From positions 1 through 64,000 of IMG/VR virus record IMGVR_UViG_3300042468_000945: 64,000 bases of DNA, one strand, 5' to 3'. The notes beneath the pieces are model-generated. The model had not been told where the DNA came from and made no database searches. It worked only from the letters and a program-made list of their open reading frames with translations. Each line of letters begins with the position of its first letter. Position 1 is the stretch's first letter. Made by a program: the position numbers and the translations under genes. The DNA comes from a virus. Positions 16,394 to 64,000 of the stretch are shown in pieces.

Positions 16394-18401
16394 ATTGTCT
16401 GCTTTTAGGTACTTGAATGTTCCCTTTATTTAGTGTACCAAATGTGCTGCTAAATAGAACACCACTTGCTGTGTTAAAGAAACTGGTATCAACACTCATA
16501 AAGTTTTCTTTACAGTTTTGATAATCATTTATGGGTCCACTAAGATATGCTGCAAGTAATGGATATCTTGTACTGTAAGGAGGTTTGTCGTAGTTAACAT
16601 CTTTAAGAAGCTTAAAGAATTCCCATACCCCTTCAAGTTTACCTATAGAGTTATTTGCTAAATTCAGTGTAGCTGATGTAATAGGAATGTTAGTTCCATT
16701 AATGGCTACGTCTGCTGTTACTTTAACTCTAGTATCGCCAAACCATAAAAACTCACCAGTACCAATAGCTCCAGTTATCGGTAGGGTTGTTAGTGCAGAT
16801 ACTGTACCATTAACCGCACCAGAAAGCTGAACAGCTACACTTAGTGATGACTTATCTGGAACCATTGTTCTTCTTTGAGCCCACGTATTGAGTGCATTAT
16901 CTAAATGGAATCCTACAAGACAATCTTTAAAAGTATTTTCGTCTGATACAATATAACTACCACCATTTGTTCTGATTGCAAAGTCAATGTTTTCAAATAA
17001 GCAGTTACTAATTGTGAAATCACTTACACCATCATCCAGATAAACTCCAGCTAGTACGTTACCTGCATACTTAGCATTTTCAGAGTACATAGTTGTTTTG
17101 TGATTTTTAATTGTAGAATTTGAAATACTGTTTCCTCTGAAAGATGGGTCTCGTCCACTATAGACTGTACCGTTGTCTGCATTATTTCTTGCTGTATTAT
17201 CTATGTACAAATTGGATAGTTTACACTCATTACCCCACAAGAAACAAGCTGCTCCATTAGAGTTTTCAAACCTACAGGTTTTAACAGTTAAACCACAACC
17301 ATAAAAAACGATTCCAGCACCGTGAACTTGAGCAAACCTACCACTACCAGAAAACTTAACATTTTCAAATAATGTACCACTATCTAGTAATGTTTCTCTT
17401 GAAGTTGTTGTAATATAGAATGATTGTGCTCCAATATCGTTAATAGTTGAGTTTGTTACCTTCAAGCCCGTACCAGTATATACAACACCAGCATTACCTA
17501 TAGCTGTAAGGTATGAATTATTAAAAGTAAAGTTAGTACAATTATTACAGGTTATAGCTGTGCCTCTAAGCCCTCTAATTGTAATTTCTAGGTTAACGTT
17601 ATTACAGTTATTAAAAGTAATAGCTGACCCAACAAACTCTCCACCAGTCAACGCTGTTTTTTGAGTATTAGGATTAAACCCTACAGGAGCAACATAATAG
17701 ACTTTACCGTAGTTACCAAAACTAGAAATTCTATCAATCCAATAATAACCTGCTTGGGTTAGGTATTCTGGAAGATTAAATGCGTAATATTTAGCTGTGT
17801 TTGATATTAAGTTAGTTACACCATTACTTACAGATGAGATTGTTAAAACATTCGTACCTGTATTAATAGCTGAAACTGTTTTCAATTCACTTGCATACAG
17901 TACTCCAACATTACCAATAACACACATACCATTAACATTAGTTAATGTATCAAACTCAGAGTTGCTGTAACCAAGAGAAACAGCATCTCCAGGAGATGTT
18001 GTATTTGCTACCCAAATATTTTGTCTTGCACACTCTGCAATGTTGTCTTGAATAATTAATTCTGCTGGTGGGATTGAAGTAAATGGAGTTTTTTGAAGTC
18101 CACCATGAACAACATTACTGTATGTCCCGAGACTAGCTCCATCCTTTAAAGTTGTAACCCAAACTTGTCCAGTTACACTTGCTGGAATCCTAGAAAAGAT
18201 TGGGTCTTGTGCTGTTAACTGTGTCCAGGTATTTAGACTATAAGAATAGTCTAAAGTACCTTTAATTGTAATATTGCTTTTGTTTGATATTACAATTTGA
18301 CGATCAGTATTTATTACACCAATATCAATTGATGTATTGTTTGCAAGCTGTTCAAGACTGAACTCAGCTTTACCTCTAGCTGCTCCTTTTATAGTTCTCA
18401 T
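16386..18401 (-). CDS. right-handed parallel beta-helix (pectin-lyase-like) protein, putative tailspike/depolymerase
   Basis: Beta-helix rungs ITFNNCNNVNLE, ITCNNCTNFTFNN; DNGTVYSGRD...RGNSISN and GVYLDDGVSDFTISNC resemble a bacterial beta-helix glycan-hydrolase family. Confidence 0.8.
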   Translation of the reverse strand: MRTIKGAARGKAEFSLEQLANNTSIDIGVINTDRQIVISNKSNITIKGTLDYSYSLNTWTQLTAQDPIFSRIPASVTGQVWVTTLKDGASLGTYSNVVHGGLQKTPFTSIPPAELIIQDNIAECARQNIWVANTTSPGDAVSLGYSNSEFDTLTNVNGMCVIGNVGVLYASELKTVSAINTGTNVLTISSVSNGVTNLISNTAKYYAFNLPEYLTQAGYYWIDRISSFGNYGKVYYVAPVGFNPNTQKTALTGGEFVGSAITFNNCNNVNLEITIRGLRGTAITCNNCTNFTFNNSYLTAIGNAGVVYTGTGLKVTNSTINDIGAQSFYITTTSRETLLDSGTLFENVKFSGSGRFAQVHGAGIVFYGCGLTVKTCRFENSNGAACFLWGNECKLSNLYIDNTARNNADNGTVYSGRDPSFRGNSISNSTIKNHKTTMYSENAKYAGNVLAGVYLDDGVSDFTISNCLFENIDFAIRTNGGSYIVSDENTFKDCLVGFHLDNALNTWAQRRTMVPDKSSLSVAVQLSGAVNGTVSALTTLPITGAIGTGEFLWFGDTRVKVTADVAINGTNIPITSATLNLANNSIGKLEGVWEFFKLLKDVNYDKPPYSTRYPLLAAYLSGPINDYQNCKENFMSVDTSFFNTASGVLFSSTFGTLNKGNIQVPKSRQFN

Positions 18402-19796: not shown

Positions 19797-20963
19797 CTAC
19801 TTTCTTCTTCTAAAATTTTTCTTGGGGCTTTTAGATTCTTCAGTTGAAAATCTATTAGATCTTCTTCTTTCAAACGATTCTCTGTTTGGTTCCGAGAACA
19901 TTTCAAAAGTATTAGTTTCTTCGTTTTTGACTTCAATTTTAGGTTCAGACAATTTTAGAATCCTACCATTAACAATTCTTCTTGTTTCTGGGGTAATCTT
20001 TTTACCTGTCAAAAATGCGTCAACAACTGCTGTGGTGCTGTGGTGAATTGCAATTTCATCATGCGAATGAATTTCTACAATACAGTCAAAAGGAGGATTA
20101 CCTTCTCTTTCTTGAATAGTTTTTTGAGTTCCTCTCTTTGTTGCCATCTCGTCTGTGAGAGTAACGGTTTTTACACCACCAATAAGTTCTGAAATTGATT
20201 TGTTTCTAATAATATCTTCTATTGTATTACCGTGTGCTGTAACTATGATTTGTACTCCTCTTTGAGATATAGTTTGGGCGGCAAGGCTCTCAGTATTGGT
20301 AGAGACTTCATCAACAATAATAACTTGTGGCATATGGTTTTCAACAGCTTCGATCATTACTTCATGTTGGTTCTTACTTCGGGGTACTTGCAATCGTCTA
20401 CTCTTTCCAACTGCCAAGTGTGGAACATCTCCTTCTCCAGCAATTTCGTTTGATGTATCAACAATCACAACTCTTTTTTGCATTTCAACAGACAGAATCT
20501 TTGCAGCTTCTCTTAGCAAACTCGTTTTTCCTACGCCTGGTGGCCCTACAATTAATAGGCTCTTTCCTTCATGTAACAAATCTTCAATAAGTTTTGCGTT
20601 TCCAACGTGGGGTTTTCCAATACGAATAGTTAAGCCAATAATATCCTCGTTTCTATTAACAATGACACTTATTCGGTGAAGGGTACCATCAATACCACAA
20701 CGATTATCAATATTAGGTTTACTTAGGTTACTAAGTATGTCGTTAATTAACTTTCTATCTGTAAGGATGTCTGTCTCATAGGCACTATCATTTTCATATC
20801 TAAACTCAACAAACCTACCTAAATCAACAACAATTTCAATTAATGTGTCAATATCAGTAATGCTATCTGAGATTTGATTTGGTAAGGTATCAAGTAATAA
20901 CTCAATGTCAGCGTAAACTGCTTCGTCAAAATTAGGGTTCATAAGTTTCCTTTGGTTTCCCAC
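19797..20963 (-). CDS. ycf45: Ycf45/SpoIIIAA-family AAA ATPase (ATG 20942 is an alternative start)
   Basis: LIEIVVDLGR, GIDGTLHRIS, Walker A GPPGVGKT, IVDTSNEIAGEGDVPH, QHEVMIEAVENHMPQVIIVDE, TAHG. Confidence 0.88.
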   Translation of the reverse strand: MGNQRKLMNPNFDEAVYADIELLLDTLPNQISDSITDIDTLIEIVVDLGRFVEFRYENDSAYETDILTDRKLINDILSNLSKPNIDNRCGIDGTLHRISVIVNRNEDIIGLTIRIGKPHVGNAKLIEDLLHEGKSLLIVGPPGVGKTSLLREAAKILSVEMQKRVVIVDTSNEIAGEGDVPHLAVGKSRRLQVPRSKNQHEVMIEAVENHMPQVIIVDEVSTNTESLAAQTISQRGVQIIVTAHGNTIEDIIRNKSISELIGGVKTVTLTDEMATKRGTQKTIQEREGNPPFDCIVEIHSHDEIAIHHSTTAVVDAFLTGKKITPETRRIVNGRILKLSEPKIEVKNEETNTFEMFSEPNRESFERRRSNRFSTEESKSPKKNFRRRK

Positions 20964-20982: not shown

Positions 20983-21846
20983 CTAAGTTACAATTACAGA
21001 ATTAGTAGCGCGATCAAGGAAGGATTTTCCTTTTAAATTGCTATCTGTGAAACTTAATGCTTCTCTAATCCAAACATATAATATATTCCCATCCATAAAT
21101 GAATCTTCTATAGCTGTACCGCCATAATAATGCTCTTCTGAGGAGACAAAATGGAATTTACTGTCAAATTTTTCTTTTGTTAAATTATTAATAAATTCTC
21201 TAAAAGGAACATAAATTTTATCTCCATACATCCTTGCTGAAGAAATTTTAGTTTTTTTCAGGAAACTAGATTTTACTACATTCCAATTTTCATATTTTTC
21301 TGGTTGGGCTTTAGGTTTTGAAGCCTCTTTCATAAGATTCAATACAAATGTTTTTGTTACCCGATTACCAGGACAAGACTTTGTTGTTTTAGGGTCATCT
21401 CTATGAAATAGGATAGTCTTTGTAGTAACAGGTAAACCTAGCCACTCAGCTAAGATAACACCCAATTCAGTTGCTGTTTTCCAGCAAGCTAAACCCCTTC
21501 CTGATGATGGATTTTCTGTATCATAATCTCCCAGTACTTCAATACCTATACTGGATGAGTTAAAACTTGCAGCATGGATACCTTTTTCAGTAACTGATGT
21601 CATACCAAAAATTTGGTCTTCATCCACAAAGAAGTGAGGACCTCGATCCCATCGCTTCTCATTTTCATAAAAACTTTTAATATTAGCAATGTGTTGAATT
21701 GTAAAACCTTTAGGCCTGTCTTTTAATGCTGGAAACCATGTGTGGTGAAACGTAATACTTTTTACCCAGCCAGGTTTTGGCTGGGTTTGTAAATATGTTT
21801 TTAATGTTTCTGGTGTCCAGACTTTGCCTACTTCTTTAAAACCCAT
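20983..21846 (-). CDS. N-acetylmuramoyl-L-alanine amidase (Amidase_2), probable endolysin
   Basis: ITFHHT, HFFVD, GIHAASFN, SIGIEVLG, FHRD, KSCPG; C-terminal twice-repeated YVP/WxRE segment. Confidence 0.9.
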   Translation of the reverse strand: MGFKEVGKVWTPETLKTYLQTQPKPGWVKSITFHHTWFPALKDRPKGFTIQHIANIKSFYENEKRWDRGPHFFVDEDQIFGMTSVTEKGIHAASFNSSSIGIEVLGDYDTENPSSGRGLACWKTATELGVILAEWLGLPVTTKTILFHRDDPKTTKSCPGNRVTKTFVLNLMKEASKPKAQPEKYENWNVVKSSFLKKTKISSARMYGDKIYVPFREFINNLTKEKFDSKFHFVSSEEHYYGGTAIEDSFMDGNILYVWIREALSFTDSNLKGKSFLDRATNSVIVT

Positions 21847-53338: not shown

Positions 53339-55024
53339 TTATTCCTTTGAATCTGGTAAATTATATACCAATGCTTCTGTAGTTAGGATAGTACCAGCCA
53401 CACTTGAAGCACTTAATACAACCTGTCTACTAACAAATGCAGGGTCAATGATTCCAAAATCAAACATATCACCGTACTCTCCAGTTCTGGCATTAAAACC
53501 ATACGTAGATTGTTTAGCTAGTGCCAGATTCTTTTCCTTATTAGGTCGTCCCCTCTCCCCAGTCTTTTCATTGTGTTCCAAGACTTTTTGATATACAACA
53601 GAACCATTATAACCAGCATTAGTTGCAATAGCAAGAAGAGGTGCCTTTAGGGTATCTAAGAATAGATTATAACCTACCTCAACATCACCATCCTTGAACT
53701 TTCTTGTTTGATTTGCCTTAACAACTTGTGCCGCTCTAATAAAGGACATCCCACCACCAACAACAATACCATTCTTTAAAGCAGTCTTTACAGCAGCAAC
53801 AGCATCTTCAAATCTGTACTTCTTTTCTTTCATTTCTGCTTCAGTGTTTGCACCAATACTGATAATACAAATACCACTTGTAAGTTTTGCTATTCTAAGT
53901 TCTAAGTACTCTTTCTGGAAAGGAGGTGTTTCTGGATCATTTTGCTTTTCCTTCAACTTATTTACATGAGCAGCAACAACCTCATCAGATGCAGAGCCAA
54001 TTAAAGTTGTAGTTTCTAAATCAATAATGATTTTCTTCGCCTTCCCTAATGAACGGAAGGATACATTATTAACCCTTGTACCTGATTCTTTTCTAATAAA
54101 TTCAGCACCAGTTATAACTGCCAAGTCTTCATACCAATCCTGAACCCTAGCACCATAGCCAGGAGCCTTAACACAAGCAAACATGTAACCTCTTTCTGCC
54201 CTATTCTTTGCCAATGTCATAAAAGCATCTTGACTGGTAGGTACGTTTCCAATAATCAAAAGATTACCTTCATGTTTTCTTGGGTTTTCTTTTAAGTATA
54301 CAGTAAGGAAGTCTGCCATTTCAGGTGCTGTCTTAATATCATCTTCAAAAAGCAAGATATCAACATCTTCCATAACGCACTCTAACTTGTCACGATCTGT
54401 AATAAAGTAAGGACTGAGGAGACCACTATCAAAATTCATGCCCTTACTATGCTTTAAAACCGTTTCTAGACCTCCTGGATGGAAAGTAACAAAACCATTA
54501 CCCCCTACCGAAGTAAACGCATCAGCGACTGTTTTACCAACATGTTCATCGTTACCAGAAATAGTAGCAAGATTCTCAATTACAGCATAATCCTCAGCTG
54601 TAATTGGTTTAGCCATTGAGTCAATTACTTCAACAACATCCCTAGCAGCTTCTTCAATACCTTCTTTAATTCTAATACCGTTTCTATTTAGGCCAACTTG
54701 CTTGTTACCTTCGTGAACCACTGCTTGGGCTAACACAATACTAGAGGTTGTCCCATCACCTACAGTATCATTAGTTCTAATTGCAGCTTGTTTTAGTAAT
54801 TGTGCTCCAATAGATTCAGCTGGGTCTGCTACCTTAATTGATCTTGCAACAGTTACACCGTCTTTTGTGACAATTGGCGGAACCCAAACATTGTCAGATT
54901 CAATAACAACATTAGAACCACCAGGACCTAACGTAACTGATACTGCTTTAGCAACCTTATCTACGCCTCTAATAATAGCCTTTCTAGCGTCATCTGAGTA
55001 CATTGTCTCGTTCTTATTATTCAT
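53339..55024 (-). CDS. groEL: group I chaperonin GroEL
   Basis: TLGPGG, TKDGVTVA, GDGTTS, GMNFDSG..SPYF, KAPGYG, FEDAV, GGG, GIIDP. Confidence 0.96.
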   Translation of the reverse strand: MNNKNETMYSDDARKAIIRGVDKVAKAVSVTLGPGGSNVVIESDNVWVPPIVTKDGVTVARSIKVADPAESIGAQLLKQAAIRTNDTVGDGTTSSIVLAQAVVHEGNKQVGLNRNGIRIKEGIEEAARDVVEVIDSMAKPITAEDYAVIENLATISGNDEHVGKTVADAFTSVGGNGFVTFHPGGLETVLKHSKGMNFDSGLLSPYFITDRDKLECVMEDVDILLFEDDIKTAPEMADFLTVYLKENPRKHEGNLLIIGNVPTSQDAFMTLAKNRAERGYMFACVKAPGYGARVQDWYEDLAVITGAEFIRKESGTRVNNVSFRSLGKAKKIIIDLETTTLIGSASDEVVAAHVNKLKEKQNDPETPPFQKEYLELRIAKLTSGICIISIGANTEAEMKEKKYRFEDAVAAVKTALKNGIVVGGGMSFIRAAQVVKANQTRKFKDGDVEVGYNLFLDTLKAPLLAIATNAGYNGSVVYQKVLEHNEKTGERGRPNKEKNLALAKQSTYGFNARTGEYGDMFDFGIIDPAFVSRQVVLSASSVAGTILTTEALVYNLPDSKE

Positions 55025-55025
55025 A

Positions 55026-55532
55026 TTAATTTTTCTTAATTTCCTTTTCTAGTGCAATAAAAACTGCAACTGAATCTGATATGTTATACAAGTCTTTAAG
55101 TTTAGTTTTTTGTAGTCTGTCTCCAAACCCGTCAAATCTTAATTTAACAGCTTCTAAAATCTCTGTTTTTTCTGCTGTTCTATTATTACAAACTCTTTTT
55201 TTAACTTCTGATGCTGTGATATATTTAAATTCTATTTTTCTTGATATACACATAGATATAATACTACCCTCAACTAAAGCTAAAGCTTTAGCTGCTAGGC
55301 TGCTTTTAGATCCTAAAGGTATTTCAAAAAGAATGAGGTTAATAGAATAATCATCAATTAGTTTATTTAAGGTTGTAATTATATTTGATATTCTTTCAAT
55401 ATAATCGTCTTTTTGTTTTTTAGTTGAATCTTTTTTGGATGATATACACCCAAAGTCTTTGATTAAATCTCCAATAATAACTGACCATCCAAAGCCAGTT
55501 AGACTAGGATCTAAACATAAACAATTTCTCAT
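55026..55532 (-). CDS. ruvC: RuvC-like Holliday junction resolvase
   Basis: CLDPSLTGFGWSVI, ILFE, ASEVKK...AEKTEI, SDSVAV. Confidence 0.88.
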   Translation of the reverse strand: MRNCLCLDPSLTGFGWSVIIGDLIKDFGCISSKKDSTKKQKDDYIERISNIITTLNKLIDDYSINLILFEIPLGSKSSLAAKALALVEGSIISMCISRKIEFKYITASEVKKRVCNNRTAEKTEILEAVKLRFDGFGDRLQKTKLKDLYNISDSVAVFIALEKEIKKN

Positions 55533-56983: not shown

Positions 56984-58096
56984 TTATTGTACTAACAATG
57001 TTCTTAGAATAATTTGTTCTCCAACACCCACATTAACTTCCCTATCAGGAGAAAGTTGAATACCATCAAGACTTGCTGTAATTGATGCATCAATTACAGC
57101 ACTATCAGAAGAAGCTGCAATAGTTCTAAGTTGAGATATAAATAAGGAACTACTGCCTCCACCTGTTTCTATTGGTAGGGCATTAATTAATGAAGATATT
57201 TGAGTTCTAACAGATGCTCTAATATTTTCTTGGTTAGTTGCAGTAGGTTTAAACCTTAAAGAAATTTTAACATCAAGGTTTCTTGCTGTTGGGACTCTAA
57301 CTACTGCGTTAATTCCTACATTAACTGCATCATCTAGTACAGCCTGGCATTTTTCAACAATATCGTTTGCCTGGTTCTGGTGGTAAGGTGTTACAATAAT
57401 GTCAAAAGTACCACCACCACGATTTAGATTTAAAAGAACAGCATCCTTAACACCAACAACACCCCTTACAAGTGCAATAACATTATCAGTATTTAATACG
57501 TTTCTTCTTCTAAACCCTTGTAGAATTCTTTCACGATAACTATCGTCAGACTCTTGTAAACTACCATTTGTAATTGGTAGAATATTACTTACTCGTACAT
57601 TGGGGTTAGGCACATTATGGGAGTCAATTTCTCCTGCACCTACATTATATGCTGGACCTGTTTGTGCCGCTGATACGTGAACATCAACTGATTGACCAGC
57701 ACCAACAGAAGCACCTTCAACAGTGAAGAAAGCATTATTTATATTACTAGAAACCCAAACCCGAGTACTAAAAGGTATTGAAACAGAAGAACCACTTAAG
57801 TTAGTAAATCTGATTGACTTTGTTTGACCTAGTGTAGTGGCTTTACTTTCTTCTTTCCTAGCCACCCCTACAATTAAACCTATTTGATCTAGGGATGGAC
57901 CTGTCGCAGTTGTTAAGTTAGATTGATTATTTAAATCTTCTAGGTATTCCCAAATACCATCTAACTCCTCAGCGACTAACCTTAAAAGAGTTCCAATTAC
58001 TGTGCCATTTAAGCTGGCAGTGATACTTGTTTCAGAGACAATTCTGCTGTATAAACTATTTAAAATTTCCTCTTTAGACGGTCTTGCTATGTTCAT
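56984..58096 (-). CDS. baseplate J/gp47-like wedge protein
   Basis: ATGPSLDQIG, GPAYNVGAGEI, ESDDSYRERI, GGGTFDIIV. Confidence 0.88.
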   Translation of the reverse strand: MNIARPSKEEILNSLYSRIVSETSITASLNGTVIGTLLRLVAEELDGIWEYLEDLNNQSNLTTATGPSLDQIGLIVGVARKEESKATTLGQTKSIRFTNLSGSSVSIPFSTRVWVSSNINNAFFTVEGASVGAGQSVDVHVSAAQTGPAYNVGAGEIDSHNVPNPNVRVSNILPITNGSLQESDDSYRERILQGFRRRNVLNTDNVIALVRGVVGVKDAVLLNLNRGGGTFDIIVTPYHQNQANDIVEKCQAVLDDAVNVGINAVVRVPTARNLDVKISLRFKPTATNQENIRASVRTQISSLINALPIETGGGSSSLFISQLRTIAASSDSAVIDASITASLDGIQLSPDREVNVGVGEQIILRTLLVQ

Positions 58097-58098
58097 AA

Positions 58099-58437
58099 TT
58101 AAGTTCCAAAAATAATGCTGTCTCTAAACTTAAATAGAGGATTAATTTTTAGGTTAATAATTGCTTTAGTTAATTCTTCGTTATAATCAATTTCATAACT
58201 AATTAAACCAAAGTAAGCATACTTCTTGTCTTTAGATGTTTCAGATTCCAAAATTAAAGTTTCATTTAATTTTAAATGCGTTAAGTCTACTTTATCAATG
58301 TCTAATGTTAAAATTAATGTGTTTTTCTTTGTTAGTTCCACATTATTAACACTAAAACAAAGTTTCCTATCAAGATAACCTTCCTCACCAGGGTTTCCTT
58401 TCTTTAACAAATATAAATAATACTTTAAATTATCCAT
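58099..58437 (-). CDS. hypothetical protein
   Basis: 112-aa ORF. Confidence 0.65.
   Translation of the reverse strand: MDNLKYYLYLLKKGNPGEEGYLDRKLCFSVNNVELTKKNTLILTLDIDKVDLTHLKLNETLILESETSKDKKYAYFGLISYEIDYNEELTKAIINLKINPLFKFRDSIIFGT
58131..58140 (-). promoter_or_regulatory. candidate late-promoter motif CCTCTATTTA
   Basis: 34 nt upstream of the baseplate J ATG, inside the 3' end of the upstream ORF. Confidence 0.35.
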
Positions 58438-59722
58438 GACTTTCTCTACAACACTTCTTATATTTTAATCCAGAACCACAAGGGCAAAGTGCATTTCTAT
58501 CTACTTGACCCCAAACTCTACCACTTATTTTTTTATTAGGTCCTAGTTTTCCTTTTTGTGCTCTATCAATAATATCTTTCCAAGCATAAGGCCACTTATG
58601 AAAATTATTTTCTAGTGAGTATTCATTAATTGCAAGTTCTCGATTTTCCTTTTGCATCTTCTCTCTTCTTACAGTATTGGTTACAAGTTCTTCTAAAGCA
58701 GAAAACCATGTACTATAGTTACCCTCACCACTACCCACAATTAAAACACTTTCAGGGTGCTTTCTTTGGAGCTTAGAATATGGAGCAACATTACTTGCAA
58801 TCATGGCTTGACCAGCTGCAAAACCTTCAAGAAGTTTTAAAGGGGATTTTGAAATATTAAATTCACAAGGGTGAACAGGAGCTAAACCAATATCTGCACC
58901 AAACAATCCTGTTGGGTGATCCATAAAGTGTCTTGGTTCCACCAATTCATATCTACCTTCTGGAATGATATTATCTTTATTAAGGTGATTAAAGATGTCT
59001 GGCGCACCATAGTAAGCAAAAATAGTTTCTGGATATTTCTGTAAGATTCTAGAAATAGGAACCATTATCTGCTCTAAATCAGTAAGGTGCGAACTACCTC
59101 CACTCCATTGGATCACAACTTTATCTTTCCATCTATCTGGTTTTTTAATTTTTATAGGTTCAAAGAATGGTTCTCCGTCTTGCCAAGAAACATTAACCTT
59201 CCAATCTCTAAAACTAAAATCAATATAGTTAGGCAGGATTGCGTAGTTTGTGTTAAACTCAGAATAAGCACCAGCTAACTCCTCAGTGGTTACAGTCAAA
59301 CCGTGACAGTTTTCCATAAACTTCTCTAGCCACTTTAAAGTATCTGAACCAGGATAATATGCAGTATAGGCTGGACTTGTTTTTAAAACTTTATGCAGGT
59401 CGTCATCAACCTCAAAAACAATTATCTTTCCATCCCATTGAAGTGTTCTAAACATTTCATAGGCTTCTGGGCTATTTTGTCTTGGTGCAATAATAACATC
59501 TGCATGTATGAATTGATTCAAATTTTGAGATGTTCCATATACAACATCTGCTCCATGCATTTTTAACATGTGGAGCGGATTAATTACCCTATAATGCCCA
59601 CAAGCACCATTATCAGCAACTAAACCAACAACTTTAAGTCCAGCATACTTGTCGCTTACTTTGTAGTCTGGAAGTTTCCTAGATGTTGTGGATACTTTCT
59701 CAATTAAACTGTTTGTTTCCAT
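58430..59722 (-). CDS. GT-B (GT4-like) glycosyltransferase with a C-terminal SEC-C zinc-binding motif
   Basis: ACGHYRV..P, FEVDDDL, WSGGSSH..DL, DIGLAP...FNISKSPLKLLE; C-terminal RNALCPCGSGLKYKKCC. Confidence 0.88.
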   Translation of the reverse strand: METNSLIEKVSTTSRKLPDYKVSDKYAGLKVVGLVADNGACGHYRVINPLHMLKMHGADVVYGTSQNLNQFIHADVIIAPRQNSPEAYEMFRTLQWDGKIIVFEVDDDLHKVLKTSPAYTAYYPGSDTLKWLEKFMENCHGLTVTTEELAGAYSEFNTNYAILPNYIDFSFRDWKVNVSWQDGEPFFEPIKIKKPDRWKDKVVIQWSGGSSHLTDLEQIMVPISRILQKYPETIFAYYGAPDIFNHLNKDNIIPEGRYELVEPRHFMDHPTGLFGADIGLAPVHPCEFNISKSPLKLLEGFAAGQAMIASNVAPYSKLQRKHPESVLIVGSGEGNYSTWFSALEELVTNTVRREKMQKENRELAINEYSLENNFHKWPYAWKDIIDRAQKGKLGPNKKISGRVWGQVDRNALCPCGSGLKYKKCCRESHG

Positions 59723-59742: not shown

Positions 59743-60153
59743 TTATATAGTATAATTTACCCTATCAAAAACTAAACCTTTCTGTAAGTCTAATTGACTG
59801 CTAACTTGAATTACTTTATCTGGATCATCTTTTGATGGTAATTCAATAAGTATAAATACCTCATCTTTATCTAAAGGGATACACGTAACTTCAACACTAG
59901 ATAATGATAAGTCAAACAAGAGAGCACTTCTTACCCTGTTTTCAATTCTTAGCCTTGTTGCTGTAGAGTTCTCTTCACCTATAAAATCTTCTAAGCTTAC
60001 ACCAATTTCAGGTTCAAGTAAGTTATCACCTGCTGTTGTTTTTAGTAAAAATACAATTTGTTGTGCTAACTGCTCATCACCTGAAACAACAGCTAAGTCT
60101 CCGTTTGCTCCAATAATAAGATCTCCGTTATCTGTTATTTTTAAATCTGTCAT
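59743..60153 (-). CDS. gp25/GPW-like baseplate wedge protein
   Basis: TDLKITDNGDL...GDLAVVSG..QLAQQI...G..LEDFIG. Confidence 0.82.
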   Translation of the reverse strand: MTDLKITDNGDLIIGANGDLAVVSGDEQLAQQIVFLLKTTAGDNLLEPEIGVSLEDFIGEENSTATRLRIENRVRSALLFDLSLSSVEVTCIPLDKDEVFILIELPSKDDPDKVIQVSSQLDLQKGLVFDRVNYTI

Positions 60154-60692
60154 TTTAAGTTCTCCATGTAATAAGTTAAGTGATCCATTTCTGGTGAGTC
60201 TACTAAATCATAATCAACAAATAAAGTATCATTATTGCAGTAATTAGATAGGGGCTTTTTATTTATAATTTCCCCTGTTTCTGGAATAACTCTTGTTGTA
60301 TCATCCATAACATATATTTTACTAATATCAACATCTTTTTTAATTAGTAAAACATTATAGTCTTCATTTATTTTGGGATTAAAAACTTTATTACCTACAG
60401 GTAATGAAAACCAATCAGTATTTGGAAATGAAATAAACTTAGAGGTTACAATAGTTGAATTAGAAAGAAGGTATAATCCACCACTCATGTCCCCAAGCAT
60501 TCTTACCTGTCCAGCATAGATATCAAACTGACCTTGATCTCTAAATATAGCACCTACAGGAAGATCAGGGTGTCTTAATCCAATATCACTATCTGAATAA
60601 GTTAATTGATTTGATCGTATAGTATCATTCGTAACTTCTTCACTATACCTATCAATAGCTATCCTTGTTTGATCAAACATACTTAAACTCAT
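60150..60692 (-). CDS. putative baseplate spike-associated protein
   Basis: Position upstream of gp25; IGLRHPD...DIYAG. Confidence 0.5.
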   Translation of the reverse strand: MSLSMFDQTRIAIDRYSEEVTNDTIRSNQLTYSDSDIGLRHPDLPVGAIFRDQGQFDIYAGQVRMLGDMSGGLYLLSNSTIVTSKFISFPNTDWFSLPVGNKVFNPKINEDYNVLLIKKDVDISKIYVMDDTTRVIPETGEIINKKPLSNYCNNDTLFVDYDLVDSPEMDHLTYYMENLK

Positions 60693-61390
60693 TTTATTGT
60701 TGTCCCTGGCCCAAACGGATTCATTGGCTTAACAATGTTTCCTGTATTTGGTTTATTTATTTTATCTAATACTGATGGTAAGAATAAAGAAGTACCAGTT
60801 GCATTATTAGTCCCCTGAGAGGTTTTTGTTAAACCAGGTGTTTGTGGTTTTTCTTTATTACTTTTCCAGTTTTCAGGTACTTGTTGTGCTCCAAGTTTAC
60901 TGCCTTCAGGTGTTGGTCCTATGTCCCCAACCATAGGTGCAGGTGTACCAACATCGTTTGTTAAAGTACCACCTCTAGGTTGCTTCTTGGTCCTACCAGC
61001 AATAATAGTAGGCATTTGTATTCTACCAGCTGCAAAGTTAATTTCTGCCTCAATAAAATTATCACGAAGAAGCTCAGAATTAAAGTCACCGGTTTTTCCA
61101 GTATTGCCAGCTAGACCAGCCCAAGAAACTTTAGGGTTGAATATGGTACGATAATCCACCCCTTCAGAACTTCTACAAACAACTGCAAAACCTATTTTAG
61201 ATGCTTTAGCTTTCTGTGCCCAACTCTCCTCACTATAAAGATTAATACTAGTCGTAGACCTCATCCAAGGACTCTTGGCAAACTCTGCAACGACATCACC
61301 AGCATTTACCAAAATACCGCTAGTATATGTTAAGTTCTCTCTAATATTCTTTATATTATTCTTATCTAATTGATCTTTATAGTCGCTCAT
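60689..61390 (-). CDS. putative baseplate spike/OB-fold protein (ATG 61390 preferred to track start 61468)
   Basis: Position between the lysins and gp25; ends in EINF..G...PTIIAG followed by a low-complexity tail. Confidence 0.5.
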   Translation of the reverse strand: MSDYKDQLDKNNIKNIRENLTYTSGILVNAGDVVAEFAKSPWMRSTTSINLYSEESWAQKAKASKIGFAVVCRSSEGVDYRTIFNPKVSWAGLAGNTGKTGDFNSELLRDNFIEAEINFAAGRIQMPTIIAGRTKKQPRGGTLTNDVGTPAPMVGDIGPTPEGSKLGAQQVPENWKSNKEKPQTPGLTKTSQGTNNATGTSLFLPSVLDKINKPNTGNIVKPMNPFGPGTTIK

Positions 61391-61395
61391 AATAA

Positions 61396-62100
61396 TTAAC
61401 CAACAAATTCCCAGTGCCAGCTCTCGTCTAGCGAACGCCCATCTCTCAAAAGAGGTGGGTTTTCCCAACCATACTGTCTACCAACTCTATCCATCCACTT
61501 GTATGTAGGTGTTTGGCGCATTCTTGCTGAACCTGCTACTGATTGTGCTCTTGAACCACTAAAATATAGTTCAGCAATATCTACTGCCAATGCCCAACCA
61601 TGCGGTGACCTTCCTGGTTTAGCTGCTCTTCCACCACCTATTGATGCTTGGTGATTATAGGTTCTATATGCTGATGTAACAGTTAAACGAACACCATCTT
61701 TTCTTGCATGCTCCATTAGTTTTAACCATGCGTCAGCGGCATCAGGTCTTAACCAATGAAAACCTTTATATTCTGCTGTTCTCGTACTTCTTTTACCTAT
61801 GGCTTTTAGTGCAGATAATGGCAACCTACCATTACTATAACCACCCCAAGCAGAGGGTCTTTTACCTGTAGGGTAGTTTGTACTTGATTGAATTGTATTT
61901 TCTTGTGGTACTTCAGCAAACTCTTCTGGGTCATCAAAAGACAATCCAAGCATATCAGATATGCCCTGGGAATCTCTCAATGATTGGTAGCTTAATTCCT
62001 TACCAAAACCCATATTTGATCGCTGCTCATACAAATACCTTGTAAAAGTAGCTTCTAATTCATCCATGTCTGGAGGGATATTTGATGAAAATTGTTCCAT
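61396..62100 (-). CDS. M15B/VanY-like D,D-peptidase with a shared N-terminal tag
   Basis: SAYRT, PGRSPHGWALAVD (SxHxxxxAxD), ESWHWEF. Confidence 0.9.
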   Translation of the reverse strand: MEQFSSNIPPDMDELEATFTRYLYEQRSNMGFGKELSYQSLRDSQGISDMLGLSFDDPEEFAEVPQENTIQSSTNYPTGKRPSAWGGYSNGRLPLSALKAIGKRSTRTAEYKGFHWLRPDAADAWLKLMEHARKDGVRLTVTSAYRTYNHQASIGGGRAAKPGRSPHGWALAVDIAELYFSGSRAQSVAGSARMRQTPTYKWMDRVGRQYGWENPPLLRDGRSLDESWHWEFVG

Positions 62101-62101
62101 A

Positions 62102-62779
62102 TTAATATTGATACAGATTATTAGTTCTCATTAAATTAATTAATTTAGATGCGTATTCTGTATTTGTACCAGCATATCCAGCTGCCTGTAAAGCTCTAGC
62201 TACGTCATCTGCATTTTGTAATTTACCAATGCCTTGTTTCTTATACCTTGGTCCTGTAAGAAATCTTCCATGATCCATAATACTTTCTTCCCAGTTATGG
62301 TAAACCCTAAAGTTTGCTGTAGTAACAAACTGATTACTACCCGATCCTTCTCTTGTTCTTAAAGCAATTGTACCAGCAGGTCCAGAACCTTTAATACCAA
62401 ACAAGTTATTATATTTAGAAGCTAAATCACTTTTACCCCAACCGCTTTCTTCACACGCTTGTGCAAGTATAACAGCTACAGGAATATTGTATAGTTCAAA
62501 AGTTTTTTTAGCTCCTGGAAGTATTTTATCAATAAAGTCTTTCTTTGTTTTAGGTATGGGATTAGTATTTACAGGAGTGTTGTTATTTGTTGGCCCATTT
62601 GCAGCATTGATTATTTGTTGAAAAGCATTACCTACAGCCTGGAAGTAATTATTTGTTGGACCATATGGGAGTTTACTTTCAAACCCCATATTTGCACGTT
62701 GTTCAAATAAATACCTTTCAAGGAGCTTTTCAAGGTGTGAAGGGTCTTCTGGAATTATACTACTAAAATTTTCATTCAT
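62102..62779 (-). CDS. GH73 glucosaminidase/FlgJ-like muramidase with a shared N-terminal tag
   Basis: ILAQACEESGWG, NNLFGIKG, FRVY..WEESI.DH, LQAAGYA. Confidence 0.92.
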   Translation of the reverse strand: MNENFSSIIPEDPSHLEKLLERYLFEQRANMGFESKLPYGPTNNYFQAVGNAFQQIINAANGPTNNNTPVNTNPIPKTKKDFIDKILPGAKKTFELYNIPVAVILAQACEESGWGKSDLASKYNNLFGIKGSGPAGTIALRTREGSGSNQFVTTANFRVYHNWEESIMDHGRFLTGPRYKKQGIGKLQNADDVARALQAAGYAGTNTEYASKLINLMRTNNLYQY

Positions 62780-63998
62780 TTTTAGCTCCTATATTTTTAA
62801 TCCTCTTTAAGTATTCAGTGTCAGATTGTGTGTGGCCATAATCTGGAACTTCTATACCAACTAGAGCCGCTAAGATAGTTGTACCTTTAGCCGCTAGACC
62901 ATCATGTTGTCCACCTAACCAACCACCCAAGAAATTATCAAAAATAGATAGATCATCTCCTACAACACAACCTTGGTGTCCTCTAATACCAGCAACATAA
63001 GGAAGGGATGTACCATTACTATCTCTTGTTCTCAGAGGAATAATTGTTACAGCTTGTCTAGCTCTTAGTGTAGAGTTAGCATAGTCTATAATAGAAGCAC
63101 CAACTGTAAACCTAATAACCTCAACAGCAGCCCTTAAAACAATAGCAGGAGATAGCCATGATACTGCTTTAATAGACGGAGCAATTACTTTCTTCATTCT
63201 ACTTGCAGCTATGGCGACTTTTTCATTTTTGAAAACAACTCCCAACTCCTTAGCAGCTAGAAAATCATCAACTTTTTGTCCTGTTGCTTTAAGCGCATTC
63301 TCAGCAATTTTAATTCTTTCAACTAATCTAACAGGATTAGAGGCTTCCCTTACAACAGCTTTCAGTTCATCATCGGCAGTTGCAATACCAGCTGCCTGAG
63401 CAGCAGTAAATTGTTGTGCTGTTAAACCTTTTCGATCAGTAAGTAACTCAACAGTATCTAGTTCCTTAATAAAGTCATTCAACCTACCCGCATCATTAGG
63501 TAAGTCTGTTTCAATCATATAGTTTAAACTTTCAACGTCTTTTAAAAGATCATTCAGTCTCTTTTCAAGAACTATTTTTCCTTCAACTGTAGTAGCTGCA
63601 TTATAAGCAGTTTCAGCTTCTTTAATTTGTTCTGCCCTCTTAGCAATTAATTCATAGGCATTTTTTATCTCTTCTTTAATTTCTGGTTCTATTAATTTAA
63701 GCTGGTCCTTGAGTCTTTTTGCCACAATACTATCAGCAATCTCAATAACTTTATCTCTATCTAATGTGTCTTCAAACTTAGCTCCTAACTCTTTTAGAAG
63801 ATCAACATAATAAAGTTGACTTTCTACAGCGATGTTTAAAACCTTTTTCTGTAGGCCAGATGCTAGTCTTAAAGCTGGTAACTCAAGGTCTAAGTCTCTT
63901 GATCGTCTTAAAATATCAAATAAGTTATTACTTGATTTGTCATTAAGAATTCTTTTTAGTTCGTTTAATTGTTTTCTTCTTTTTGCCCCATAAAATGG
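62772..63998 (-). CDS. C-terminal part of a large helical virion protein (tail/hub); 5' end lies beyond the window
   Basis: The track's GTG at 63725 is internal: the frame stays open to the window edge (PFYGAKRRKQLNELKR...). C-terminal IIPL...PYVAGIRGHQGCVVG. Confidence 0.75.
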   Translation of the reverse strand, partial: PFYGAKRRKQLNELKRILNDKSSNNLFDILRRSRDLDLELPALRLASGLQKKVLNIAVESQLYYVDLLKELGAKFEDTLDRDKVIEIADSIVAKRLKDQLKLIEPEIKEEIKNAYELIAKRAEQIKEAETAYNAATTVEGKIVLEKRLNDLLKDVESLNYMIETDLPNDAGRLNDFIKELDTVELLTDRKGLTAQQFTAAQAAGIATADDELKAVVREASNPVRLVERIKIAENALKATGQKVDDFLAAKELGVVFKNEKVAIAASRMKKVIAPSIKAVSWLSPAIVLRAAVEVIRFTVGASIIDYANSTLRARQAVTIIPLRTRDSNGTSLPYVAGIRGHQGCVVGDDLSIFDNFLGGWLGGQHDGLAAKGTTILAALVGIEVPDYGHTQSDTEYLKRIKNIGAKNE

Positions 63999-64000
63999 TC

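Follow-up and report, generated by a model that had tools for sequence, protein, structure and literature searches.

The closest described counterpart of the locus reported here is the tail module of Bacillus phage 0305phi8-36, in which gp147 is a hyperplastic homologue of the T4 gp27 hub and carries fused wall-degrading domains in the position taken by the tail lysozyme in T4 (Hardies, Thomas and Serwer 2007, PMC2147016). The relative BtI1 has its lysin genes separate, just downstream of the hub (PMC2147016). We examined a 64,000-nucleotide stretch of DNA, hereafter the window, that comprises bases 1-64000 of a 118-kb IMG/VR record (IMGVR_UViG_3300042468_000945, estimated to be 66% complete) from an uncultured myovirus, one of a rare set of giant phages, all of them uncultured. 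In this phage, the gene for a giant baseplate hub is followed by two small genes coding for an N-acetylglucosaminidase of family GH73 and a zinc peptidase of family M15B, and the two proteins begin with the same 37-amino-acid segment, which we call the tag. Our preferred explanation, in which we place slightly more belief than doubt, is that the tag mounts these separately encoded tail lysins on the hub or the tail tip and co-evolves as a docking peptide.

The hub gene (62772-70676 of the record, minus strand, with its C-terminal 408 codons in the window at 62772-64000) codes for a protein of 2634 amino acids that matches phrog_20474 (4.1e-74) and is collinear in four segments with gp147. Its C-terminal block is conserved in five lineages. 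The C-terminus of gp147 has fused NlpC/P60 and M23 domains, which our analysis confirmed, whereas Pfam reveals no lysin domain in the positionally corresponding C-terminal stretch of the hub of the window phage, and separate lysin genes follow instead. The new locus thus resembles those of 0305phi8-36 and BtI1 in its homologous and collinear hub, in the syntenic gp25-like and gpJ-like genes downstream, and in having wall-cutting domains tied to the C-terminal end of the hub. The difference from 0305phi8-36 is that its NlpC/P60 and M23 domains are fused to the hub, whereas GH73 or SLT domains plus an M15B domain are made here as separate tagged polypeptides. The separate lysins of BtI1 differ in another way: they are laid out like endolysins, with wall-binding domains at the C-terminus, and a common N-terminal tag is not reported for them (PMC2147016). 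In T4, gp5 on the gp27 hub likewise places a wall-cutting enzyme at the baseplate centre for local digestion during entry (PMC2147016). However, the T4 lysozyme domain is inserted in the spike protein, whereas here two enzymes appear to be held non-covalently through a common peptide. In Bacillus phage KLEB27-3, too, an 'LT-like structural protein' is encoded separately, right behind the hub.

The GH73 gene (62102-62779) and the M15B gene (61396-62100), both on the minus strand, encode proteins of 225 and 234 amino acids, each composed of a tag, a linker and a catalytic domain. BLASTP aligns residues 2-38 of the peptidase with residues 3-39 of the glucosaminidase without gaps and with 21/37 identities (E 2e-10), and it finds no further alignment in the remainder of the two proteins. 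The tag is encoded at 62663-62773 in the GH73 gene and at 61987-62097 in the M15B gene (minus strand in each case), and in the M15 protein a 21-residue core spans residues 13-33. Exactly two copies of the tag are present in the 118-kb record. Just 9 of the 21 identical residues share their codon, the nucleotides are 54% identical, and a Ser-Ser pair is written AGT AGT in the GH73 gene and TCA TCA in the M15B gene. Because the codons have diverged to this extent, the conservation must lie at the protein level.

Behind the tags, the catalytic domains belong to different families. Residues 90-222 of the GH73 protein match the Pfam Glucosaminidase family (PF01832, 3.9e-33) with 115.2 bits against a gathering cut-off of 30.2, and the orthologue from the related locus L003 scores 114.6 bits. 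The window protein reads A-C-E-E-S-G-W-G where its L003 counterpart reads L-E-S-G-A-A-G, and the Glu of the E-S-G-W-G region is the putative catalytic residue by analogy with FlgJ- and Auto-type enzymes. The other protein matches VanY (PF02557, 1.4e-16), of VanY/LdcB fold, with 60.9 bits against a gathering cut-off of 25. Residues H167, D174, E226 and H229 of the M15 motif (H-x6-D, E-x2-H) are invariant in 12 aligned sequences. Thus, the first-pass annotation, which had described a single 37-residue tag conserved as protein in front of two unrelated catalytic domains, is borne out on each of these points. It had also described a linker rich in N, T and P in both proteins. This composition is seen when reading the GH73 protein (residues ~40-85, 62525-62662, minus strand), where the linker lies outside the Pfam match, whereas the linker of the M15 protein (residues ~39-88, 61837-61986, minus strand) is acidic and Ser-rich, although it is still predicted to be disordered (pLDDT <50 at residues 29-83).

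The genes are tightly packed. The stop codon of the hub gene overlaps the start of the GH73 gene by 8 nucleotides, and gaps of 1 and 5 nucleotides follow the two lysin genes. Homologues of both enzymes outside this clade lack the first 70-100 residues, including the N-terminal segment, with alignments that begin at residue 69-141; GH73 relatives outside the clade align just from about residue 75 onward.

Direct searches made the tag look like an orphan. A 4-sequence profile of the exact tag, built from the window phage and its nearest relative, recovered only the two closest phages plus repetitive junk from 1.84 billion representative proteins, and pattern scans found one other contig in IMG/VR and none among metagenome contigs. 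This appearance was overturned when relatives were retrieved by synteny through the hub gene, which added five more lineages. A second marker gene, coding for a 180-amino-acid protein, retrieved the same five IMG/VR contigs and no extra lineage. In six lineages, the gene order is hub, glycan cutter, M15 peptidase, and the lysin genes lie inside the tail and baseplate module, flanked by the gp27-type hub on one side and by gp25-like and Baseplate_J genes on the other. The peptidase is a VanY protein in all six. Its partner is a GH73 enzyme in the window phage (G000) and in L003/L038, an SLT protein in L040/L041 (1.6e-27), L042 (4.1e-24) and L053 (1.6e-6), and a 219-amino-acid domain with no family match in L050, for which the Atlas search gave a weak lead to phage tail lysozyme. 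L050 and L053 come from metagenomes and the others from IMG/VR. Against PHROGs, the tagged SLT proteins match lytic tail proteins and virion proteins best. The cargo behind the tag has been exchanged among GH73, SLT and the unassigned domain, with tag and gene position kept.

The tags themselves diverge rapidly between phages but stay alike within each phage. The 12 tags align without gaps over the 21-residue core, where the two tags of one phage share 9-14 of 21 residues (mean 11.2) and tags from different phages share a mean of only 4.7. Orthologous M15 tags average 4.5/21, even though the M15 catalytic domains are 44-73% identical between phages. Among all 720 possible pairings of glycan-cutter tags with M15 tags, the true pairing gives the top summed identity. 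When the window phage is compared with L003, both paralogues share lineage-specific residues at six tag positions (F/Y, I/L, P/G, L/V, E/Q and M/L), whereas just one or two positions are gene-specific, and the shared residues mostly use different codons. Paralogous tags that are more alike than orthologous ones do not result from independent decay. Recent gene conversion was rejected as the cause, as nucleotide identity is 54-57% and about half or fewer of the identical residues share a codon. What keeps the two tags alike is either selection for a shared partner or conversion that happens now and then, with selection acting afterwards.

One locus has tags of mixed appearance. In L053 (4617-5859, plus strand), the SLT tag is nearest to the type of the window phage (9-10/21) and the M15 tag to the L040 type (10-11/21), with 10/21 identities to each other. 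In addition, the three divergent clade members L038, L040 and L042, each with its own tag variant, all originate from metagenome 3300020576, which raised the idea that diverged tags keep co-occurring relatives from cross-assembling.

The tag appears to be restricted in its cargo. When the 12-tag profile was run against 5.8 billion proteins longer than the tag, the matches were VanY, GH73, SLT and L050-type proteins only, with lengths of 189-246 residues. A hidden Markov model of the core found no further match among 1624 reading frames drawn from the phage record and related loci. Because neither search finds anything else, the tag is specific to the hub-adjacent wall hydrolases of this clade and is not a general payload signal. 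The first-pass annotation had proposed that a profile of the tag be used to search for other cargo domains, and the 12-tag profile returned only peptidoglycan hydrolases of the clade. Its idea of a modular tag carried by interchangeable enzymes is partly supported, given six lineages, three kinds of exchanged cargo and tags that are paired within each phage, although the exact tag is confined to two phages.

The tag is laid out as a short variable lead, a helix of about 16 residues, an N-M-G-F turn and L-x-Y, followed by a disordered linker of 40-55 residues. In an AlphaFold2 model of the M15 protein, based on a 12-row alignment, residues 14-29 form a helix (pLDDT ~53), residues 29-83 are disordered, and the catalytic domain, which is folded and confidently modelled (pLDDT 70-93), starts near residue 90; the tag does not pack on the enzyme. 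Foldseek identifies LdcB (4jid and 4mph, E 3.5e-8) and VanY (5hnm) as the best matches to this model, and also Ply500 (2vo9) and LysB4. The helix is weakly amphipathic, with a hydrophobic moment of 0.04-0.42, and no tagged enzyme has a transmembrane stretch or a signal peptide (maximal 19-residue hydropathy <=1.23). A membrane-binding amphipathic helix, a signal peptide and a signal-anchor-release (SAR) domain were considered for the tag and rejected, because hydrophobic stretches are missing and the hydrophobic moment is low or variable.

These findings can be joined in a model in which both enzymes are peptidoglycan hydrolases of the tail tip that would breach the cell wall at infection. The GH73 enzyme is predicted to cut the glycan strand and the M15B zinc peptidase the peptide stem. 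The N-terminal module would be an assembly handle that binds a structural protein of the central baseplate. The likeliest partner is the giant gp27-type hub, which is encoded immediately upstream and is probably translationally coupled to the first lysin, and the alternative partner would be the hub-spike complex. Both enzymes would hang at the tail tip on flexible tethers, with the linker giving them reach, and would do in trans the work of the lysin domains that 0305phi8-36 has fused to its hub and T4 has in gp5. If both enzymes must fit the same site, their handles are expected to change together in each lineage, and the catalytic domain behind the handle would be free to be exchanged. The model builds on what was observed, namely homologous tags that co-vary, proteins made of three parts, conserved synteny and exchanged catalytic domains; from these we infer that the enzymes are present in virions and which partner they bind.

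A more far-reaching version of this model holds that the tag is a portable peptide, both necessary and sufficient for recruitment to one hub site, and that each lineage has a mutually orthogonal pair of tag and socket, parallel to but independent of the signals of extracellular contractile injection systems (eCIS). We entertain this version only tentatively and are inclined to doubt it. If true, it would represent a natural plug-and-socket system for tail-tip enzymes, with three such lineages in one metagenome.

Several observations weigh against docking on the hub or tail tip. In the search for a partner, the C-terminal domain of the hub proved to be well conserved and not co-varying, and a sliding-window comparison of hub C-termini gave no signal. 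The tag helix is modelled with low confidence, and an old gene conversion followed by synonymous saturation may be how the tags stay alike. A seventh lineage, L039, encodes a lone 222-amino-acid enzyme after the hub (16638-17306, plus strand) with SLT-like look-alikes in the Atlas search. The tag core is not recognisable in this protein, which has just N-L-G-F-G where the core would end, and no VanY protein was found in the 100-kb record. L039 may carry a reduced or diverged form of the system. The main rival explanation is that the tags bind each other, so that a parallel hetero- or homo-oligomer of helices joins glycan cutter and peptidase into a bifunctional lysin complex, on the virion or not. 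Such an oligomer would explain the co-variation equally well: like positions touch in a symmetric parallel bundle, and parallel substitutions in both paralogues, such as the L to V, E to Q and M to L changes seen here, would be expected. In every case the two genes sit side by side with tight coupling, and multimeric lysins such as PlyC exist. We nevertheless regard this explanation as unlikely, as the helix, at ~16 residues, is short and of weak amphipathicity, the L039 lineage has just one enzyme, and the fixed position between hub and baseplate genes and the fused arrangement in 0305phi8-36 would be left unexplained. Another rival is that the proteins are soluble endolysins that act late in infection, with a shared N-terminus that is regulatory, through a holin-like or inhibitory partner or in timing. 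In two relatives (G002 and G003, 84% and 94% complete), the tagged enzymes are the sole peptidoglycan hydrolases among eight families searched, and they could serve there as endolysins, solely or as a second role. Phage_lysozyme, Amidase_3, GH25 and M23 were found in none of the five records, and neither was GH19, a negative that carries little weight because this search matched no control genome either; Amidase_2 was not found in G002 and G003. The catalytic domains also resemble Ply500 and LysB4 and match PHROGs labelled endolysin, and PMC2147016 considered such a role for the separate downstream lysins of BtI1 without deciding the question.

We judge the endolysin explanation to be quite improbable all the same. 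The genes lie inside the block from hub to baseplate in six lineages and have no holin-like or spanin-like neighbour at the locus (holins were not searched genome-wide), the proteins carry no transmembrane or signal segment, and many of the matched 'endolysin' PHROGs are giant hub or tape-measure proteins of 1400-1950 positions. Moreover, an Amidase_2 candidate is encoded separately in both the window phage and L003. In the window, this is an untagged protein of 287 amino acids (20983-21846, minus strand), of T7-lysozyme/PGRP type, which is a candidate endolysin encoded outside the tail module and has an orthologue in a 235-kb, 95%-complete relative. A third rival treats the tag as a loading signal that would bring the enzymes inside the tail tube, next to the tape measure, to be ejected when the tail contracts; the first-pass annotation had noted a likeness to leaders of contractile injection systems. 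Unrelated effectors of PVC and Afp carry in common some 50 additional N-terminal residues, which are absent from their homologues and required for loading (PMC9054023; bioRxiv 10.1101/2023.11.13.566157; PMC11495950), and PVC effectors were spotted by this segment in the same manner as the tag (PMC9054023). Here too, an N-terminal segment without counterpart in homologues is common to two enzymes in each of six phages, a long disordered segment stands behind it, and giant tail-module proteins with nuclease-like and phosphoesterase domains suggest that enzymes are delivered. However, PVC loads toxins into the lumen and needs the AAA ATPase Pvc15 to do so (PMC9054023, PMC11495950), whereas this is a true phage whose cargo, by the 12-tag profile, consists of peptidoglycan hydrolases only and whose likely docking site is the hub. 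Pfam and PHROG scans find no ATPase among the tail-module proteins; the sole AAA ATPase seen is encoded about 40 kb away (19797-20963). Delivery through the lumen is also not needed, because peptidoglycan hydrolases act outside the cytoplasm. We consider this route very improbable, and regard the likeness to contractile injection systems as one of principle only. Finally, the segment is short, and it could be suspected of being a functionless relic of duplication or a chance likeness. This reading is refuted by an E value of 2e-10, by recurrence in six lineages with saturated synonymous sites and by paralogous tags that are more alike than orthologous ones, and we give it almost no credence.

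The docking model has parallels in more distant systems. The depolymerase tailspikes of Klebsiella phages have a conserved N-terminal module that anchors an exchangeable C-terminal enzyme, and their modules are swapped between phages (PMC6872550, PMC8262889). Those tailspikes are large trimeric receptor-binding proteins that sit outside the baseplate and have folded anchors. In contrast, the proteins described here are small, probably monomeric hydrolases with an anchor of about 38 residues that diverges fast, and in step on two genes per genome. Another parallel is offered by the type VI secretion system, in which specialised effectors are fused to VgrG and cargo effectors are bound through N-terminal markers or adaptors such as MIX. 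Both cases involve a split between fused and in-trans enzymes on a hub-spike resembling gp27/gp5. However, the type VI machinery is distinct, relies on other markers and in most cases on adaptor proteins, and we claim no homology.

Fused tail lysins, remodelling of the hub in the 0305phi8-36 lineage, N-terminal anchors of exchangeable tailspikes (PMC6872550, PMC8262889) and eCIS cargo signals were all known before. The literature that we searched contains no account of small separate tail lysins that share a short, fast-evolving peptide which co-varies per genome and whose catalytic domain is exchanged. Tail-associated lysins are usually described as domains fused into the hub, spike or tape-measure protein, whereas here small separate enzymes seem to be clipped on by a short peptide. 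If binding is confirmed, the locus would provide a compact natural case of phages modularising their cell-entry chemistry, diverged pairs of tag and socket for studying the co-evolution of peptides with their partners, and an annotation rule for orphan lysins beside giant hubs in metagenomic phages.

Downstream of the lysins, the window contains further genes of the baseplate module, all on the minus strand. A conserved protein of 233 amino acids (60689-61390) has orthologues after the lysins in all seven lineages and might be the central spike by position. Its reading frame extends over 259 codons (60689-61468), and comparison of orthologues places the true start at the ATG at 61390. The protein has no Pfam, PHROG or PDB-sequence profile match, its AlphaFold2 model is poor (pLDDT 42), and an hhalign comparison with the gpV-like protein of 0305phi8-36 was negative. 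The next gene (60150-60692) codes for the conserved 180-amino-acid protein used above as a marker, which has orthologues in every lineage that reaches this far and no Pfam or PHROG match; its comparison with gp149 of 0305phi8-36 was not significant. It is followed by a gp25-like sheath initiator or baseplate wedge protein (59743-60153; PF10934 3.2e-9, phrog_120 2.2e-16, and BLASTP 1e-8 to gp150 of 0305phi8-36) and by a Baseplate J-like wedge protein (56984-58096; PF04865 4.7e-26), which marks the module. The first-pass annotation had placed the lysin genes between a hub-like gene and spike and gp25 genes. The hub-like gene upstream and the gp25-like and Baseplate_J genes downstream agree with this placement, whereas the spike label for 60689-61390 and 60150-60692 has no supporting match.

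Within the hub itself, a dead SLT domain was considered at residues 1180-1340 (L031:4658-5140, minus strand), which read R-R-S-G-F-G ... G-D-G-G-Y-F-N-L. This candidate was rejected, as it has no Pfam match even at E 10. On the other side of the hub gene, bases 70679-83796 of the record (L031 and L032) code for a 2062-amino-acid protein with a RecE/Cas4-like nuclease region, a 384-amino-acid metallophosphoesterase, and proteins of 1572 and 244 amino acids, the last two of which have no family match. Far from the tail module, the Amidase_2 gene adjoins the gene at 19797-20963, whose product is a Spore_III_AA-like AAA ATPase.

Some genes with other predicted roles are interspersed among those of the baseplate. 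A 212-amino-acid open reading frame of L003 (7486-8124, plus strand), with an N-terminus that resembles GIY-YIG by eye, lies between the M15 gene and the next baseplate gene. The site is empty in the window phage, and the reading frame appears to be an inserted homing endonuclease. In the window, a glycosyltransferase (phrog_7162) with a terminal SEC-C zinc motif is encoded at 58430-59722 (minus strand), between the gp25-like and Baseplate_J genes, and it occupies the same position in L003, L039, L040 and L042. Two further reading frames, identified by eye, are located among the baseplate and fibre genes: one of 561 amino acids that looks like a GroEL-type protein (53339-55024, minus strand) and one of 168 amino acids that is RuvC-like (55026-55532, minus strand). 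The same pair is also found after the baseplate genes in L039, L040 and L042.

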